64,000 nucleotides of DNA from Vulcanimicrobiota bacterium (lineage in GTDB: Bacteria; Vulcanimicrobiota; Vulcanimicrobiia; Vulcanimicrobiales; Vulcanimicrobiaceae). The position numbers are program-made. Of the stretch, positions 12,001 to 30,000 are shown piece after piece (position 1 is the first letter of the stretch; every line of letters begins with the position of its first letter). The DNA lies in contig CAVRQT010000003.1 of the NCBI GenBank assembly GCA_963723515.1, positions 32,001-96,000 on the forward strand, written 5' to 3'.

Positions 12001-15000
12001 TAAATCCGAGATCGGCCGAGGACGCATCAATCGCCCTAAGGTGTTGATGGCAACCGAGAAGCAGATTGCTGCTTGGAAAAAACGAGATGACGTAGACGAT
12101 GCAGCGCTCGGCGTCCCAAATTGGGTGCCGGCCATTAGCGTTCAAGCCATTCGAGAGCAAATCGGATTGACGCAAGAAGAGTTCGCAACTCGATTCATGC
12201 TCTCATTGCGGACGATTCAAGAGTGGGAGCAAGGCCGACGTGAGCCATCTGAGGCGGCGCGTGTTTTGCTGTTTGCAATTTCACGAGCGCCGAAAGCGTT
12301 AGAACGAGCTCTGCGCTAGCCGGAAGGGTTGATAGGGTTCCTCGCTTCGACGCGCGATTCGATGTAGCGATCGACTCCCGGACGAACCGCCTCCACCATC
12401 ATCGCGGCGCCAAGTGCAATGAGCGCGCCGACGATAACGAGCAGCTCGTCCCGTTCGCCCTCACGATCCGCTTCGCGCCAGCGCACTTCAACGGTTTGCC
12501 CGAGTTTGACGCCGCGCTCGCTTTCGGGCGAAACGACGGAGCTGTTTCCGATCCACGAATATCCGCCTGAGAATTCAACGCTTTCCGTTCCTGCGGTGTG
12601 TGGGAAACGAATGTACACCGTTGGCGCGGCGGTGTGCGGCGCCATGTATGGACCCAGCCCCGCCGCATCGCGCGCCATAACGAGCAATCGCTTCGTCACA
12701 AATGTTTCCCGGTCGGCCGTGCGGCGCAAAGCACAGCGCAACTGAACGAGCGTTTCGACCGGCGCCAGCGTCCAGTTTTGGCTCACGGAATCGTAGATCA
12801 GCGGTTGATGCGGCTGGTGCGGCGTCACGGAGATGATCCAGTCGTCGTGAAAATTCGCGTCTGTTGCTGGGATCGGTTCGACTGCCAGCGTCTCGGTCGG
12901 CGTATCTTGCGCTCCGGTCAGCACCTCTTGGCATGCATCGGGGCCGGTCAAATGGGAGACCAAAATCTTGCCGCTGACTCCGGGCGGGTACCAGACGTAG
13001 AGCGCCGCGCTGCCGCGGTCTTCACGATAATCCGCCTCGGTATATGCTCCCAACTTTGCAAGGCGCGGACGGTCAATCGTTGTGTCGAGGAGCGAGCGCG
13101 TCGGGTGCAGCCCGGCGTTAGGAAAGAGAAACTCCAGGCGCAGCGTGTGTTCGTCGTCAATGGGCGCGTGCTTGACACCGACGACGATCCACGTGATGAT
13201 CGCCGCCAAGATGAAGAGGCAAAAGGCGAAGCTGCCCCAGGCGATAAGGCTGCGCCGTACCGAGTGGGGGCTGATCGAGAAAAGGGCATACCCAGGCTCA
13301 GGAACCTGACCCATCGGCTCGCTCGCCTTGGACCGGCGCTCGGCCGTCCCCTTCCCTTGACCCTAGGCAGCGTTCTCCGATACAATACGGCGGTTGTGCA
13401 GACGTTTCAAATGAAGACTGCCGATACGAAGCATTCGTGGTATGTCGTTGATGCCGCGGGTCAGCGTTTGGGAACGTTAGCGGTTCGCATTGCCCGCGCG
13501 CTCTGCGGCAAATACAAGCCGACGTGGACGCCGCACATCGACGACGGCGATTTTGTCGTCGTGCTCAACGCCGAAAAAATTGAGCTCGGCGGCAAGAAGT
13601 GGGAACAAAAAGTTTACCGCCGGCACAGCGGTTATCCCGGCGGCTTGCACACGCAGACCGCACAAGACGTTCGCGAACGGTACCCCGAGCGGCTGATCGA
13701 AATGGCCGTGCGCGGGATGTTGCCGACAAACAAGCTGCGCGACATTCAATTGCGGCGACTGAAAGTCTATCCGACGCAAACGCATCCGCACGCCGCGCAA
13801 GCGCCGCAACCGCTGCCCGAGACGATCGCTTGAACGAAAACTTCGCGGGCACGGGCCGCCGTAAACGCTCGATCGCGCGCGTGCGCCTCTCGCTGGGTCA
13901 GGGCACCATCACGGTCAATAAGAAGTCGCTCGACGAGTACTTCCCGCGTCCGGCGTTGCAGCAGATCGTGCGGCAGCCGCTTGAAGTGACGCAAAGCCTC
14001 TCGCGCTTCAACGTTGAGGTCAAAGCCGAAGGCGGCGGGGTTGCCGGACAAGCCGGCGCCGTACGTCACGGCATCGCGCGAGCGCTCGTCGAGATGGACG
14101 AAGCGCTGCGCGAACCGCTTCGGCGTAACGGACTGCTGACGCGCGACCCGCGCGAAAAAGAATCGAAGAAGTACGGGCGCAAACGCGCTCGCAAGCGCTT
14201 CCAGTTCTCGAAGCGCTAAAGCACCCTCAATTTAGCAACAAGCAAGCCACTTCGTTGTCACCATGCGCGCCTATGATGGCGCGCATGTTTGATCTTGCCC
14301 CCCAATTAGCGAGCGCGCTTCGCAAAAGCGCCGAACAACTGCAATCGACCGCGATGACGGCAGCCCGCGCGGAAACGAACGCCGGCGCGCCCGTTTCGAA
14401 TCAGGCCATGGCGTCGCTAGCGCGGGAGGCGATCTTCACTGAAACGCTCTTGAGCGCCATCCGATCGCGACTGCAAGAAATCAGGCTCGTGACCAAATGA
14501 ACGCGGACCTGCTCTCCATTGCGGCTCAAGGCATGGACGTGCAACGTGCCGCGCTCGATGTCGCGGCCAGAAATGTTGCCGCCGCTGAGGCTGCGGGCCC
14601 GAAGGGATCGTATGCGCGGTTGGTTCCACGCTTTCATCTCCTTCAGCGTGCCGGAAATACAGAGATCGCATTCGCCGGCGCGGCAACCGAACGTGGTTCA
14701 CACGTGGACATTCTCACGGAGATGGTGTCGGTCCTCAGAGCGTCGCGCGCGTTTGAGGCAAACGCATCCGTCTTCGATCTCGCAAAACGGCTCGCGGAAC
14801 GCACGATCGAGGTGGAGCGCGCAGTGAGGGTCGTTCCCTTACAGCCGGATATGCCGCAACCGGCAGTGCAGCAGACCGGGAGCACCGTTAACGCGTTTAC
14901 CGATGCCGTGAGCGCAATCGCCGGGTCGCTCGCGCGAGCCGAAAGCGCTGAAAACGCGTACGCGCTGGGAACGGGCACGTTGCAAAGCGCCGTGCTCGAA

Positions 15001-27000: not shown

Positions 27001-30000
27001 GCGCTCGCCGCCGATATCGGCGTCGTCCTGCCCGGCGTGCGTCTGCGCGATAATCCCGCCGACGATGCGGACGGCTACGTCATTCGCATTCGCGAGGAGC
27101 GCGTCGCGCAGGGCCGATTACAGCTCGATGCCCTCCTTGCGGTCTGCGAACATGCACGCATAAGGCACCTGGACGGAATGCAAACCTCGGAACCGGTGTA
27201 CGGCTTGCCGGCGAAGTGGATTTCGGCACGGGATCGGGACGCGGCAATTTCCGCCGGAGCGCTCGTCTTCGATCCCATCTCCGTTTTAGGCTCTCATTTG
27301 GCGGAAGTTGCTCGCGAGCACGCCGATGCGCTGCTCGGGCGTCAGGAGTTGCAAACGTTGCTGGAGCATCTGCGCACGATCGTGCCGGCGCTGATAAAAG
27401 AAGTCGGAACGGATAACTTGCCGCTGGCGACGCTGCATCGGGTCTTCACCTTGCTGCTTCGGGAGCGGATCTGGCCCCGCGATCCGAGCGCTGCGCTCGA
27501 AGCGATCGTCGATGCCGCAGCGACTTCACGCGACGCACGAGAGATTGCGGAACGCGCTCGTGCTGCAATCGTTCCGTCGCTCCTGCGCCGCAGCGAAACA
27601 GCGTCATTGGAAGCGATGATCTTCGCACCGCCATTGGAACGCGAGCTGACCGAAGCGTGGATTCCATCCGTTGATGGACCAACCGCCGCACCCGATCCCT
27701 CGGTTGCTATGCGGCTGCGGGAGTTTGCGCTTCGATTTGCGGCGAGCGTCCCGCGCGAACGCTCGGCAGCGGTATGCGGAAGCCGCCTGCGACCGATGCT
27801 TGCGGATTTCTTCTTGCGCGCGGGAATCGCGCTGCCCGTCTTTTCTTATAACGAGCTTCCAACCAATATCGAACTTCTGCCGCGCGCGCTCTTTGGCGCT
27901 GAACCCGCCTTAGCTTCTTAAGCGCGCTTCTGCCAACGGAGCGTTGCCATTGCATTGGGCTTCATACCGTCGCACCAGGTCGTATAGTAGGTGCGGGGCG
28001 GAATCCCGCTTGTCGCATACGCATATGACAGCCTTGGCCCATCTCGAACGGCCACGCATGCGCGATGCAGTTGCATGATGAAGTCGGGACGCCGTTCCAG
28101 CGGCACCTTGTCGATGAAGAGCGCGCGATGCGCACGAAGGTCCGCATCGTTGAACCAGCGTTTGGCTTCCTGCCCTTGGGTATCGTAACCGATGACGGCG
28201 GGTGTAACGCCGGCGTAAAAGTCCAGCGCCGACGAAAAGCCATAACCGTCCGTGACGGCAATCGCCCGCTGCTGCTCCGTGATGCGCCTGACGTCATGCG
28301 CTAAGCGCTCGTACGTGTAAATCTCAAATGCACCGTTGTCGCTCAAGTGAATCCCAAGATGCTGGACAAAGGCATAGATTCGATCTGGAACGATCGTTGC
28401 GCCGAAAAGCAGCACGAGTAAGAAAATCGCCGGCGCAATCGCAAATCCACTCCAAAAGCGGCGCATCTTGGGCGCAAGGCCGGTCCACGCAATTCCTGCG
28501 GCGATCGCGAGCGTCACAAACGGCGCATCAAACCAATAGACTTCGACCGGCTCCTTAAAGGCCAGCAGTGCAAAGCCGATCCCGAGCGGCAAAGCGCTCC
28601 AGAGCAGCAGCGGATTGCGGGCGCGTGCGGCCGCCACCACTGCGGCGGCATATAGCCCCGGCGAAAATGCGATGATCGCAGTGAGCTGCAACGTCAGCGG
28701 TCGCAAGAGCATCGGATGGCCCGCGTGACGTCCAAAGATCGAAAAAACGAACGTGATCCAGCCATGCGTAGCATTCCAAAGCAGAAATGGCGCTATCAGC
28801 AACACCGCGATCGCAACGCTGAACCACAGCCGCTGCGGTTCAACGGGCCGACGCAGGGAGCGTAGTGCGAGCCAGACGCCGGCAAGGAAGGCGAAACCGA
28901 AGAGTCGCGAGAGCAGCGTAAGCCCAACGCACACTCCAAGCCACACATACCAGCGCGTTTCGCCTTCACGAAACGCACGAGCACCGAAATACAGCGCGGC
29001 GGTCCATGCGGCGAGATAGGGGCCATCGGGAACGGCCGTTGCAAAGGCGATCGAAAGAATGGGGGCGAGCGCCACAGCCAGCCCGGCCGGTAGGGCGGCG
29101 CGGCGATCCTCGGCAAGATAGGCCGCCGTTGCAGCGGCAAAAACCGGCGCAGCGATGCCGCAGATAATGAAGGGCAGGCGGACGGCAAACGGGTTCGCAC
29201 CCAGCCAGGAGAAGAGCCGGATCGCATAGGCCACCAACGGCGGATGGTCGGTGTAGCCGGCCGCGAGATGACGGCTCCACTCCCAGTAGTAGCCCTCATC
29301 CCCGCCCAGCGGCGTGCGCCAGGCGCCGAGGCAGCGCAGCAGCGTCAGGATCGCCACCGTCGTCACAAGCAGGCCGCCCCCGTCCCACGAACGCAGCACA
29401 ATCTTGAGTTTTGTCATCCTGAGCTTAGCCTGTACTGAGCTTGTCGAAGCATCAAAGGACGTTTGACGCTCAAAGAGCGCTCCTGCTACAATGCATCAGC
29501 TTACGCCGCGGTCGGCTCTTGTGGCCCCGAGGTGATCCGCATCTTGGGAGATCATGAGCTGGAATAGACTGAGGAACCCACTGAAGGCGCTGGTCGTATT
29601 GGCCATTGCGGCGCTGTGCATTTGGTTCGTCGTCCCCATTCAGAAGAAAATTCACCTCGGCTTGGACCTCCAAGGCGGCGTGCGAGTCTTGCTGCAGCTC
29701 AATCCGAACACCCAGGTTCCGCAGATCAACTCGCAGGTGCAAGGCGAGGTCGAGCAGGTCATTCAAAACCGCATCAACGGCTTGGGCGTGACCGAACCGG
29801 TCATCACGCGCGTCGGCAACGATCGATTGATGGTCGAGCTGCCGCAGGTCAAAAATCCCGACGAAGCGACCAAAACGCTCAAAGAAATCGCGCAACTCGA
29901 GTTTAAGATCGTTCCGGAAGCGGTCGCAACTCGCGCCGAGCGCGATCTAAAATATGCGCGCGATCCGAACGGCGCCTACAAGGACAGCGGTCCCGTCGTC

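Follow-up and report, generated by a model that had tools for sequence, protein, structure and literature searches.

Several reduced or non-motile relatives of the bacterial flagellum have been described. The injectisome (NF-T3SS) is a flagellum relative minus the motility parts, with the export core kept, and the Myxococcales secretin-less 'Myxo' or needleless T3SS* systems are reported to have no secretin in the locus (PMC3459982, Abby and Rocha 2012; PMC12075869). Buchnera basal bodies without a filament keep basal-body and export genes in the absence of flagellin; according to PMC8109811 they are expressed, a transport role has been proposed for them, and they represent a sole flagellum eroded in endosymbiont genome reduction. 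In the non-flagellated soil bacterium Lysobacter enzymogenes, residual flagellar T3SS genes were apparently repurposed (PMC7688988, PMC9927559); the abstract-level description presents them as remnants of a single ancestral flagellum in one genus and mentions no fusions or class-wide paralogue. The hat-shaped inner-membrane structure (Kaplan et al. 2022, PMC9380563) is likewise an fT3SS-related non-flagellar assembly, observed by tomography in species whose flagellar genes are ordinary, and the description given there includes no dedicated paralogous set.

We analysed a stretch of 64,000 nucleotides (the window) from a Vulcanimicrobiaceae genome, G000, whose assembly comprises 2.11 Mb in 4 contigs and is 88% complete; the host is a soil bacterium. 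ORFs and family matches place a flagellar-type T3SS cluster, referred to as type B, at 14273-27921 on the forward strand, where a preliminary description had put it. Among RNA runs, none was found to contain the stretch. The FHIPEP, TIGR FlhA, SctN and FliI scores of that description were reproduced and are given with the features below.

14273..14500, + strand: g01222, two-helix protein of 71-75 aa in the flgB position, with a 4-nt overlap into the next gene
14497..15093, + strand: g01223, FlgC-like proximal rod protein fused to FliE (Flg_bbr_C 67-104, FlgC 68-108, FliE 133-198)
15097..16398, + strand: g01224, FliF (MS ring) fused to the FliG middle domain (YscJ_FliF 51-212, FliG_M 369-418)
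16391..16861, + strand: FliH, short, 156 aa (Pfam FliH 50-151)
16858..18096, + strand: FliI/SctN-type export ATPase (ATP-synt_ab 199 bits; SctN 328, FliI 322.7 bits)
18127..19695, + strand: g01227, double retropepsin, passenger (Pfam Asp_protease_2 twice)
19732..20277, + strand: g01228, putative short FliK/SctP/HpaP-like substrate-switch (T3S4) protein in the fliK position (profile, atlas, AF2)
20277..20993, + strand: hook/rod-family axial protein, 238 aa, D1 domain only, in the flgE position (LlgE_F_G_D1 55-128; FlgEFG subfamily 45.6 bits)
20990..21781, + strand: FliM-like C-ring protein with the C-terminal FliN-type (SpoA) domain only (FliMN_C 189-260)
21778..22080, + strand: FliN (FliMN_C 79.8 bits; TIGR fliN 88.7 bits, above the cut-off of 84.05)
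22077..22733, + strand: FliP (Pfam FliP 241 bits; TIGR fliP 229 bits, above the cut-off of 217.45)
22751..23656, + strand: MetF (methylenetetrahydrofolate reductase), passenger between fliP and fliQ (TIGR00676 338 bits, above cut-off)
23869..24138, + strand: FliQ (Bac_export_3 74 bits)
24135..24851, + strand: FliR (Bac_export_1 109.6 bits)
24848..25870, + strand: FlhB, with an NPTH autocleavage motif at residue 254 (Bac_export_2 241.5 bits)
25867..27921, + strand: FlhA, type B (FHIPEP 672 bits; TIGR FlhA 650.5, hrcV 515.9 bits)

All sixteen genes attributed to the machine are present, but fourteen of them constitute it, because g01227 and MetF dissociate from the T3SS in both directions. g01227 is absent from the type B clusters of G165 and G100, and MetF, found at the same place in all family loci examined, is absent from the clusters of two further families of the class, f2 and f3; both are kept in G050, G126 and G012, where the T3SS is gone. 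We therefore rejected g01227 and MetF as parts of the machine; they merely lodge in the operon. Unlike the T3SS genes, which are translationally coupled (overlaps of -1 to -8 nt), the passengers sit behind spacers, those around g01227 measuring 30 and 36 nt. g01227 carries, besides a Sec-type signal peptide (read by eye) and an N-terminal domain, two retropepsin-like domains (DSG, DTG), with both D[ST]G motifs invariant in 5 sequences. Each genome has 1-11 members of its family among the matches, in most cases 5-11. Relatives carry other inserts in the operon, an ABC transporter in G024 and an oxidoreductase in G004. The slot between rplM-rpsI and secD is common to G004, G006, G015, G059, G165, G100 and the f2 genome G173, and the FlhA-secD linkage is also found in f3.

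Type B shares with the bacterial flagellum both its families and the fla-operon order (rod genes, fliE, fliF, fliG, fliH, fliI, fliK-like, hook-family, fliM, fliN, fliP, fliQ, fliR, flhB, flhA), and its FlhA fits the FlhA model better than the SctV model. It differs in that FliG N and C domains, MotAB, P ring, FlgD, canonical FlgE, FliD, FlgK/L, flagellin, FliJ and FliO were not detected. g01224 has no beta-collar, FliG_N or FliG_C; the fusion recurs in 38 aligned relatives, mostly at 485-490 aa (alignment A4), and the AF2 model (pLDDT 74) has a TM helix, three alpha-beta-beta-alpha-beta modules, a second TM helix and a helical tail. The FliM domain PF02154 was not detected in the FliM-like protein, whereas it is present in FliM of the canonical flagellum (type A) and of B', a set of paralogues in other classes of the phylum. 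The fusion of FlgC to FliE, whose rod-type ends lie at residues 5-40 and 68-108, exists here but is not a type B trait: it is private to G000, the two genes being separate in 62/62 other family and order loci. g01222, conserved in 18 relatives (alignment A3), is possibly a minimal FlgB. It had no Pfam match, hhalign against type A FlgB/FlgC and B' FliJ was not significant, and the protein atlas placed it in its own Vulcanimicrobiota clusters (0.97) ahead of FlgB as the first named family (0.86), which is a lead only. The hook/rod-family gene most likely starts at 20277, a correction to the earlier gene call, and fliN most likely at the ATG at 21778, which overlaps the fliM stop, rather than at 21676.

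For g01228, no family match was obtained with the single sequence. Among its homologues, 4/38 match Pfam Flg_hook (best E 9.7e-5), the family profile matches the FliK T3S4 structure 2rrl over residues 107-176 (E 0.086), and 9/30 atlas hits are HpaP/SctP clusters (0.93 and 0.91). AF2 gives a C-terminal alpha-beta-beta-beta-alpha fold (pLDDT about 86), with fold searches returning generic ferredoxin-like matches only. Taken singly, each measure makes a weak link to FliK/SctP.

Type B resembles the injectisome in its short HpaP/SctP-like switch and in an MS-ring protein that approaches the SctJ plan by reduction, and it resembles the Myxo systems in that its locus has no secretin. However, type B keeps flagellum-specific rod genes and FliE, its FlhA lies among the flagellar FlhAs of its own phylum, and SctC, SctD, needle and translocon were not detected in the cluster. 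It is not of the injectisome lineage and would be an independent reduction. Type A and type B FlhA share 37-42% identity and fall in different clades, the type B clade including f2, f3, P0001 and P0003. In both trees (FastTree, 108 rows; IQ-TREE LG+C20, 46 rows; both unrooted and with no SctV included), B plus f3 is sister to the B' paralogues with 99-100 SH-like support. The B' cluster of G099, the one genome in which B' was inspected in full, has the same gene order with full-size FliF, FliG (N/M/C), FliH (393 aa), FliJ, FliM and FliO, and a 270-aa hook/rod homologue with D1 and Flg_bbr_C. Because the FlhA sister is this full-size flagellar paralogue and not type A, type B appears, judging from this one protein, to derive from a second flagellar lineage. 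The preliminary description had seen a separate paralogous T3SS persisting without flagellin rather than the wreck of type A; FlhA clades, distribution and dN/dS agree, with the amendment that type B is itself a reduced flagellum.

The bimodal FHIPEP scores held in a larger sample of 61 family genomes, at 837-875 bits for full-length type A copies and 588-678 bits for type B. Flagellin-bearing genomes have type A in 27/27 cases and type B as well in 25/27, while in 29/34 genomes without flagellin the FHIPEP match falls in the B range or is partial or split (3 of the 29 partial or split). Type B, with or without type A, extends past the family into f2 and f3; in f3, flagellin was found in 0/21 genomes, one FHIPEP in 9/10, and one FliF of 470-491 aa in 5/5. 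In contrast to Buchnera, it is a paralogue beside a complete flagellum in many free-living relatives, and it predates the split of three families. It is not kept throughout, contrary to the preliminary description: G050 and G126 have clean deletions of it, and it is dispensable.

Such losses, the shrunken parts, scores below the equivalog cut-offs (TIGR FlhA 772.1, SctN 604.75, FliI 619.1 bits) and the unrelated inserts (MetF, g01227 and those of G024 and G004) might suggest a non-functional relic, a flagellar system in slow decay. We consider this very improbable, given that three families, with FlhA identities as low as 47%, have intact ORFs and that dN/dS is far below 1 (0.01-0.58 for every T3SS gene in 7 pairs; 0.07-0.33 for the hook/rod-family gene; 0.00-0.05 for FliN alone). 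Purifying selection acts on the type B genes. The catalytic and cleavage motifs have been preserved as well, with Walker A and GERGRE each in 66/67 loci and FlhB N-P-x-H in 50/50 type B loci covering the site, and real decay looks different: in G012, fragments of FliI, g01228, FliN, FliP and FlhA are left.

As the preliminary description stated, flagellin, stator, cap and chemotaxis genes were not found in G000: Flagellin_N, MotB_plug, FliD_C and CheW gave 0 matches, as did Flg_bb_rod, FliG_C and FlgI, and FHIPEP gave one match genome-wide. Given that all the rod, ring and switch genes are of flagellar type, and that a block of at least 50 kb beside the contig start is missing from this incomplete assembly, type B could still be a motility organelle, with a filament and stator non-homologous to known ones or outside the assembled sequence. 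This seems extremely improbable, since four single-contig B-only genomes also have no flagellin, with FliG_C, MotB_plug, FlgI and FliD_C each at 0/5 when G000 is included, and the rotor has no FliG domain to meet a stator. Flg_hook was found in 0/3 B-only genomes. Type B has lost the FliG torque domain, stator, P ring, hook, caps, junction proteins and flagellin. A cultured family member with an outer membrane is reported to show no flagella and to move by type IV pili, with no flagellin gene and a fliN gene listed (PMC9758169, Table S8).

In relatives, a second locus encodes FlgF-like and FlgG-like proteins and a FliA-like sigma factor. The rod genes are, as previously noted, absent from the G000 assembly, which is explained by the unassembled block and not by loss. 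In 4/4 complete B-only genomes the FliA/WhiG-like sigma gene follows the rod pair, and in the same four the locus adjoins sepF-divIVA. These neighbours, together with the retention of canonical FliA (254-256 bits) by the B-only genomes G024 and G004, recognisable substrates that are axial proteins only, and the lack of a detected outer-membrane conduit, would fit a structural or regulatory basal body. It would export its own rod, tip and switch proteins, perhaps an anti-sigma factor, and no foreign cargo, yielding an envelope-spanning rod, as a scaffold or landmark, or else a FlgM-like checkpoint controlling FliA-type sigma activity. We regard this as possible though rather unlikely. No FlgM homologue was found, and the 102-aa ORF that follows the sigma gene matched no family and is arginine-rich, doubtful sequence; canonical FliA is cleanly deleted in G000, yet all 14 T3SS ORFs are intact; scanning G000 for the sigma-28 consensus yielded 0 strict hits; and a substrate switch that has been retained points to more than one class of substrate.

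The reading that we find probable is that type B descends, in reduced and non-rotating form, from a second flagellar system present early in Vulcanimicrobiota (Eremiobacterota), and that it builds a rod and exports protein. It retains the export gate (FliPQR, FlhB, FlhA) and ATPase pair (FliH, FliI), along with a compact MS ring to which the FliG middle domain is fused, a light C ring (FliM-like, FliN), the rod proteins FlgC, FliE and perhaps a FlgB-like one, joined in relatives by the second-locus pair, a small hook-family protein and the short switch protein. The machine would assemble in the inner membrane and export its own axial proteins, forming a short-tipped rod that crosses the periplasm of the diderm cell. 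A subsequent switch to a second substrate class, and with it export of further cargo, is proposed because the FlhB autocleavage site has been kept along with a T3S4-type switch; nothing supports export past the periplasm, as neither a secretin nor an L/P ring was found in the cluster. With rod pair and sigma gene not assembled and canonical FliA deleted, the G000 copy could be on its way out. Type B is apparently a flagellum turned into a non-swimming export or envelope device.

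The cluster of the reduced flagellar-type type III secretion system (T3SS) in this Vulcanimicrobiaceae genome (G000), here type B, holds 16 ORFs on one strand. Its position and those of other features of the window are as follows.

14273-27921, + strand: the 16 ORFs of the type B cluster
23657-23868: metF-fliQ spacer of 212 nt, at whose two ends a long inverted repeat lies (AGGAACCTCCGAAGAAGCC ... GGCTTCTTCGGGGGTTCCT)
27918-29417, - strand: PMT_2 family glycosyltransferase gene, convergent with flhA and overlapping it by 4 nt
3534-4241 and 4352-4810, + strand: two adjacent ORFs that match the N- and C-terminal portions of a single class-III aminotransferase; this may represent a frameshift or a split gene
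56908-62559, - strand: bacterial alpha-2-macroglobulin gene (1883 aa)

Searches with Pfam and NCBIfam returned the same annotation and numbers for the cluster as the preliminary description had given. Neighbouring T3SS genes share overlaps of 1-8 nt. Two passengers, a double retropepsin gene (g01227) and metF, stand apart from their neighbours, with spacers of 30/36 nt around the former and 17/212 nt around the latter. The inverted repeat in the metF-fliQ spacer may be a structured element or a terminator dividing the operon. The flanks are housekeeping genes, with rplM-rpsI upstream and the PMT_2 glycosyltransferase gene followed by secD/secF downstream, and G+C content is even throughout the region. 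No PMT_2 gene was found between flhA and secD in the relatives' loci examined. Among the sequencing runs listed, no RNA run contained the stretch; one DNA run held a small share of its words.

Genes of the type B cluster
g01222: 75 aa; no Pfam or NCBIfam family
g01223 (FlgC-FliE fusion): rod-type ends at 5-40 and 68-108; FliE at 133-198
g01224 (FliF-FliG middle domain fusion): YscJ_FliF at 51-212; FliG_M at 369-418
FliH: 156 aa
FliI: SctN 328 bits (cut-off 604.75); FliI 322.7 bits (cut-off 619.1)
g01227: 522 aa; aspartyl-protease domain present twice
g01228: 181 aa; no family match
Hook/rod-family protein: 238 aa; of the domains, D1 alone
FliM-like protein: 263 aa; FliN-type C-terminal domain only
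FliN, FliP: scores exceed the equivalog cut-offs
MetF: score exceeds the cut-off
FliQ, FliR: both present
FlhB: NPTH at residue 254
FlhA: FHIPEP 672 bits; FlhA model 650.5 bits (cut-off 772.1); hrcV 515.9 bits

All seven parts of the export core, FliPQR-FlhB-FlhA with FliH/FliI, were matched by Pfam and NCBIfam, with their motifs conserved. After removal of four duplicate loci, FliI carried Walker A in 66/67 type B loci, GERGRE in 66/67 and a Walker-B-like motif in 59/67. The G000 assembly (2.11 Mb in 4 contigs, 88% complete) has one FHIPEP gene and gave no match to Flagellin_N, Flg_bb_rod, FliG_C, MotB_plug, FlgI, CheW or FliD_C, in agreement with the earlier claim that it has no flagellin, cap, stator or chemotaxis genes (Flagellin_N, FliD_C, MotB_plug and CheW, all zero). 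For comparison, four single-contig genomes with type B and no flagellin ("B-only"; G024, G004, G006 and G015, 92-99% complete) were searched, and Flagellin_N, FliG_C, MotB_plug, FlgI and FliD_C were absent from these as well. Unlike G000, G024 and G006 have CheW. Across these five genomes, the torque-generating part of FliG and the MotA/MotB stator are missing (FliG_C 0/5, MotB_plug 0/5), and the sole FliG part in type B of G000 is the FliG_M fused to FliF. The hook, cap, junction and flagellin are likewise missing (Flagellin_N 0, FliD_C 0/5, and neither FlgD nor FlgE_D2 in the cluster), as are, judged by the search for FlgI (0/5), the L/P rings of a diderm flagellum. A cryptic motility organelle, with a rotor that lacks the torque domain of FliG, is a reading that we find hardly credible.

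In its gate and its flagellum-specific genes, the cluster does not match an injectisome either. By model score, the gate is not of SctV type, with 650.5 bits to the FlhA model vs 515.9 to hrcV, in an analysis whose trees hold no SctV rows. The flagellum-specific FlgC, FliE and FlgEFG-type genes are present. Pfam detected no secretin SctC, SctD ring, needle or translocon within the cluster; at the scale of the genome, a secretin search would be confounded by the secretins of type IV pili.

Two kinds of full-size system within the phylum show what type B is without. The canonical flagellum of relatives (type A) is, in G043, a complete diderm flagellum: a 561-aa FliF that includes the C-terminal domain, a FliG comprising N, M and C domains, FlgD, a D2-bearing FlgE, MotA/MotB, a FliM that has the FliM domain, FliO, FlgF/G, FlgA/H/I, a FlgJ-like protein, FlgK, FlgL, FliW, CsrA and flagellin. 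Other classes carry a full-size flagellar paralogue, B', which was inspected in full in one genome (G099) and there has the gene order of type B with full-size parts; in G110 and G088, the pattern of tblastn hits matched this.

Parts of B' in G099
FliE: 114 aa
FliF: 568 aa, C-terminal domain included
FliG: 336 aa (N/M/C)
FliH: 393 aa
FliI: 440 aa
FliJ: present
Axial protein: 270 aa, D1 and C-terminal motif
FliM: 325 aa, with FliM domain
FliN: 191 aa
FliO, FliP, FliR, FlhB, FlhA, FliQ: present

Compared with A and with B' alike, type B carries FliG_M fused onto FliF and has lost FliG_N, FliG_C, the FliF collar region, the FliM domain, FliJ and FliO, and its FliH is shorter. An AlphaFold2 (AF2) model of the FliF-FliG protein (pLDDT 74) comprises a TM helix, three alpha-beta-beta-alpha-beta modules, a second TM helix and a helical tail.

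We surveyed FHIPEP in 61 genomes of the family, G000 included. The bimodal scores reported previously were seen again in this sample, with full-length matches falling at 837-875 bits (A) or 588-678 bits (B). Flagellin was above cut-off in 27/61 genomes. As had been proposed, flagellin-bearing relatives have a second, canonical FlhA besides B: A was found in 27/27, in four of them split or cut by a contig end (G005, G009, G023, G025), and B in 25/27, the other two being G007 (a fragment only) and G011 (72% complete, none). An FHIPEP match was found in 29 of the 34 flagellin-less genomes, 26 of these full-length and in the B range, two partial (G008, G037) and one split (G042), and none in the remaining five (G012, G017, G019, G050, G055). 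Seven of the genomes counted here carry an unpublished flag (G008, G019, G021, G028, G029, G041, G051); without them A is in 26/26, B in 24/26, and FHIPEP in 24/28 flagellin-less genomes, and nothing else claimed here depends on them. Extra copies occur in two genomes: G047, with no flagellin match, has a type A FlhA and two of type B, and in G051 type B is duplicated.

Among genomes sampled across the class at a completeness of 85% or more, flagellin was present in 33/96 of family f1, 3/3 of f2 and 0/21 of f3. A single FHIPEP gene of 691-723 bits was found in 9/10 f3 genomes. The f3 cluster is split, with one locus holding an ORF at the g01228 position, a D1 protein, a FliM-like protein, FliN, FliP/Q/R, FlhB, FlhA and secD, and a separate locus holding a FliF of 470-491 aa with a FliE/FlgC-like sequence ahead of it. 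In other classes, G099, G110, G088, G066 and G139 have 2-3 full-length FlhA genes each, along with numerous free-standing ORFs whose match is confined to the C-terminal cytoplasmic domain of FlhA/SctV. A further FHIPEP of G088 is very divergent (279 bits to hrcV) and was used only to draw the FastTree tree.

Among 1.84 billion protein cluster representatives, only a handful were B-like (P0001 at 59% identity, P0003 at 48%, and fragments), and beyond these identity to B was at most 43%; A and B are 37-42% identical. FlhA trees were built with FastTree from 108 rows (8 B, 3 f3, 9 of 24 A loci, 11 other-class copies and 77 anonymous representatives, taken from 141 of 640-760 aa as the first 12 and then every second) and with IQ-TREE under LG+C20 (PMSF, quick) from a 46-row subset. 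In both, B (f1 and f2) grouped with f3 at support 100, and this group was sister to B' (G099a/b, G110a, G088a, G139b, G066b and P0004) at support 99. Type A (support 100) joined different other-class copies, G139a, G066a, G110b and G139c, at support 99-100. The stem of B is long, at 0.41-0.63 substitutions per column. The five other-class genomes searched for an SctV outgroup held none at the hrcV cut-off, so these trees are unrooted. By the sequence of FlhA alone, type B descends from a second flagellar lineage. Parsimony puts the direction from full-size to reduced, because A, B' and flagella generally have the full-size state.

The cluster is collinear in G004, G006, G015, G043, G059 and G024 (the last examined over 20 kb); tblastn did not detect FliH in G004 or g01222 in G043. 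It sits in the rplM-rpsI ... secD slot in several genomes, including the f2 genome G173, which has no MetF there. The g01227 family has 1-11 matches per genome in the class (a count that also includes G156, flagged as unpublished and used only here), mostly 5-11, with 5 in G000. Across all 30 genomes of g62, the largest genus, no g01227 match rose above paralogue level (best ~165-213 bits vs 400-854 for cluster copies), and two g62 members, G165 and G100, have complete B clusters without g01227. Conversely, G050 and G126 have no FHIPEP and hold g01227 and MetF alone in the slot, while in G012 both are intact beside T3SS fragments (FliI 83 aa, g01228 30 aa, FliN 29 aa, FliP 115 aa, FlhA 27 aa). 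Either side can thus occur without the other, the T3SS or the pair g01227 and MetF, and the machine of 16 genes described previously is thereby reduced to 14. The operon has taken up other unrelated genes too: G024 has an ABC sugar transporter and a dehydrogenase in it, G004 an oxidoreductase/epimerase.

In g01227 itself, Asp_protease_2 was matched over two stretches, and the retropepsin (clan AA) D-[ST]-G motif occurs twice per chain, with D272-S-G and D405-T-G invariant in five sequences. It is likely a periplasmic pepsin-like protease in its own right, and the members of its family are probably secreted or periplasmic pepsin-like proteases. The FliF-FliG_M fusion is general, being present in 38 aligned relatives at mostly 485-490 aa. 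The FlgC-FliE fusion stands for G000 but not as a general trait, given that the parts are separate in 62/62 other loci holding both. A FlgC-FliE-like fusion may exist in G092 (f3).

Nei-Gojobori dN/dS was computed for seven pairs among 11 mutually close loci, chosen from 87.

Range of dN/dS by type B gene
FliN: 0.00-0.05
FliP: 0.05-0.14
FliF-FliG: 0.06-0.22
FliI: 0.10-0.31
Hook-family protein: 0.07-0.33
FliM-like: 0.19-0.50
g01228: 0.26-0.45
FliH: 0.12-0.58

Six of the seven pairs have dS near saturation (about 0.9-2.6); the seventh, L085-L091, has dS of 0.33-0.80 and leaves the picture unchanged. Type B is a conserved, selected, flagellum-derived gene set that has no torque domain, stator, P ring, hook, caps or filament. 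Fragmentary remains such as those in G012 are what a decaying relic would leave, and as an account of type B as a whole, with these dN/dS values, we judge it very improbable.

Two small proteins were examined more closely. In an alignment of 38 sequences, g01228 shows a conserved N-terminal motif and a C-terminal domain. Pfam Flg_hook was matched by 4/38 members (best E 9.7e-5), and the family profile aligned with the FliK T3S4 structure 2rrl over the C-terminal domain at E 0.086. HpaP/SctP clusters were returned for it in the Atlas at 0.93 and 0.91. AF2 predicts an alpha-beta-beta-beta-alpha domain (pLDDT ~86), for which Foldseek found nothing in the PDB at E <= 0.001 and the wide VIA fold search gave generic ferredoxin-like matches only (Z <= 8.6). 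The gene is at the fliK position, overlaps the hook-family gene by 1 nt and keeps this order in relatives, while canonical FliK is found beside type A only. Its expected partner, the FlhB cleavage site N-P-x-H, is conserved in 50/50 loci (NPTH 33, NPAH 8, NPEH 6, NPNH 2, NPSH 1). Taking the Pfam, profile, Atlas, AF2, fold-search and position evidence together, we interpret g01228, at moderate confidence, as a putative T3S4 switch protein of short length. The second, g01222, is a two-helix protein of 71-75 aa; hhalign against type A FlgB/FlgC and B' FliJ gave nothing significant, and a minimal FlgB is offered as a lead only.

Relatives hold further rod genes at a second locus. Each B-only relative has exactly two Flg_bb_rod genes, both rod-type, a FlgF-like one of 199 aa and a FlgG-like one of 241 aa (194 bits). 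The earlier observation that this pair is not found in G000 was borne out (0 vs 2). A FliA/WhiG-like sigma factor gene (118-123 bits, cut-off 189.6) follows the pair, and G004, G006, G015 and G024 share synteny across the block sepF-divIVA ... rods-sigma ... iPGM. G000 is without the entire block, sepF, divIVA and iPGM included. Positions 1,320,200-1,382,000 of G006 are collinear with 66-62,366 of the G000 contig C3, whereas upstream of these, at ~1,262,000-1,315,000, most of the ~50 called genes, second locus included, have no G000 ortholog, and only five match in G000, at 31-41% identity. The second locus thus falls in a block missing at a G000 contig end, and its absence there is no evidence of loss. 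Two candidates near this locus were discarded: a 102-aa ORF behind the sigma gene, considered as FlgM, is a doubtful arginine-rich sequence with no family match, and the antisense ORFs of 569/397 aa that lie between divIVA and the rod pair seem to be spurious.

Canonical FliA (254-261 bits) lies near recA in the flagellated G043 and G059 and in the B-only G024 and G004. G000 shows a clean deletion of this gene between two conserved neighbours (C3:521923-521983, outside the window), and a scan of the genome for the sigma-28 promoter pattern gave no strict matches and a few loose ones. Near canonical fliA in the flagellated relatives, a 653-aa ORF has a second weak Flg_hook match of 23-27 bits (G043:C1:916639-916821, G059:C1:3234020-3234229). 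A sigma gene beside the rods would suit a type B that is purely a structural apparatus or a sigma-factor checkpoint, with no cargo beyond its own parts; next to the retained FlhB site and switch protein, we regard this as rather unlikely. In the reading we prefer, type B would assemble a basal body that does not rotate, with a rod in the periplasm and a short tip, and would next export a further substrate class, since the FlhB cleavage site and the switch protein are retained.

By the rule set out in the parts of Abby and Rocha's paper drawn on here (PMC3459982), the type B cluster counts as flagellar, not as an NF-T3SS. It is like their inferred intermediate in having lost motility parts and having no secretin, and unlike it in being of separate origin. 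The systems of Buchnera (PMC8109811) and Lysobacter (PMC7688988, PMC9927559) are, in the sections cited, what is left of the one flagellum that each had. Tomography has also shown a hat-shaped structure related to the fT3SS (PMC9380563). A T3SS or flagellar paralogue in Eremiobacterota/Vulcanimicrobiota was not described in the literature searched, which lay outside subscription papers. A cultured member of the family is, in the portions of its description used here, a diderm with type IV pili motility, no flagella seen and no flagellin gene, and its Table S8 lists a fliN gene (PMC9758169). With a flagellum-less member in culture, direct study by tomography and knock-outs is feasible.

We tentatively propose, as a possibility held at less than even confidence, that type B is a second, independent flagellum turned into a dedicated non-motile secretion machine that exports non-flagellar cargo in free-living diderms. 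To our knowledge, inferences on how a flagellum became a secretion machine have until now drawn on a single lineage, that of the injectisome and its Myxococcales relatives. If the proposal is true, type B would be a second natural case of that step from another starting point, and a present-day counterpart of the step with which the injectisome is proposed to have begun. Its hosts are free-living diderms, often associated with moss and peat. The same phylum contains all three of B', B and the ordinary flagellum A, in some cases within a single cell. The first parts to go would be the torque domain, stator, rings and filament, and those staying the gate, ATPase, rod and switch. Flagellar gene annotations in Vulcanimicrobiota genomes should not be taken as evidence of motility.
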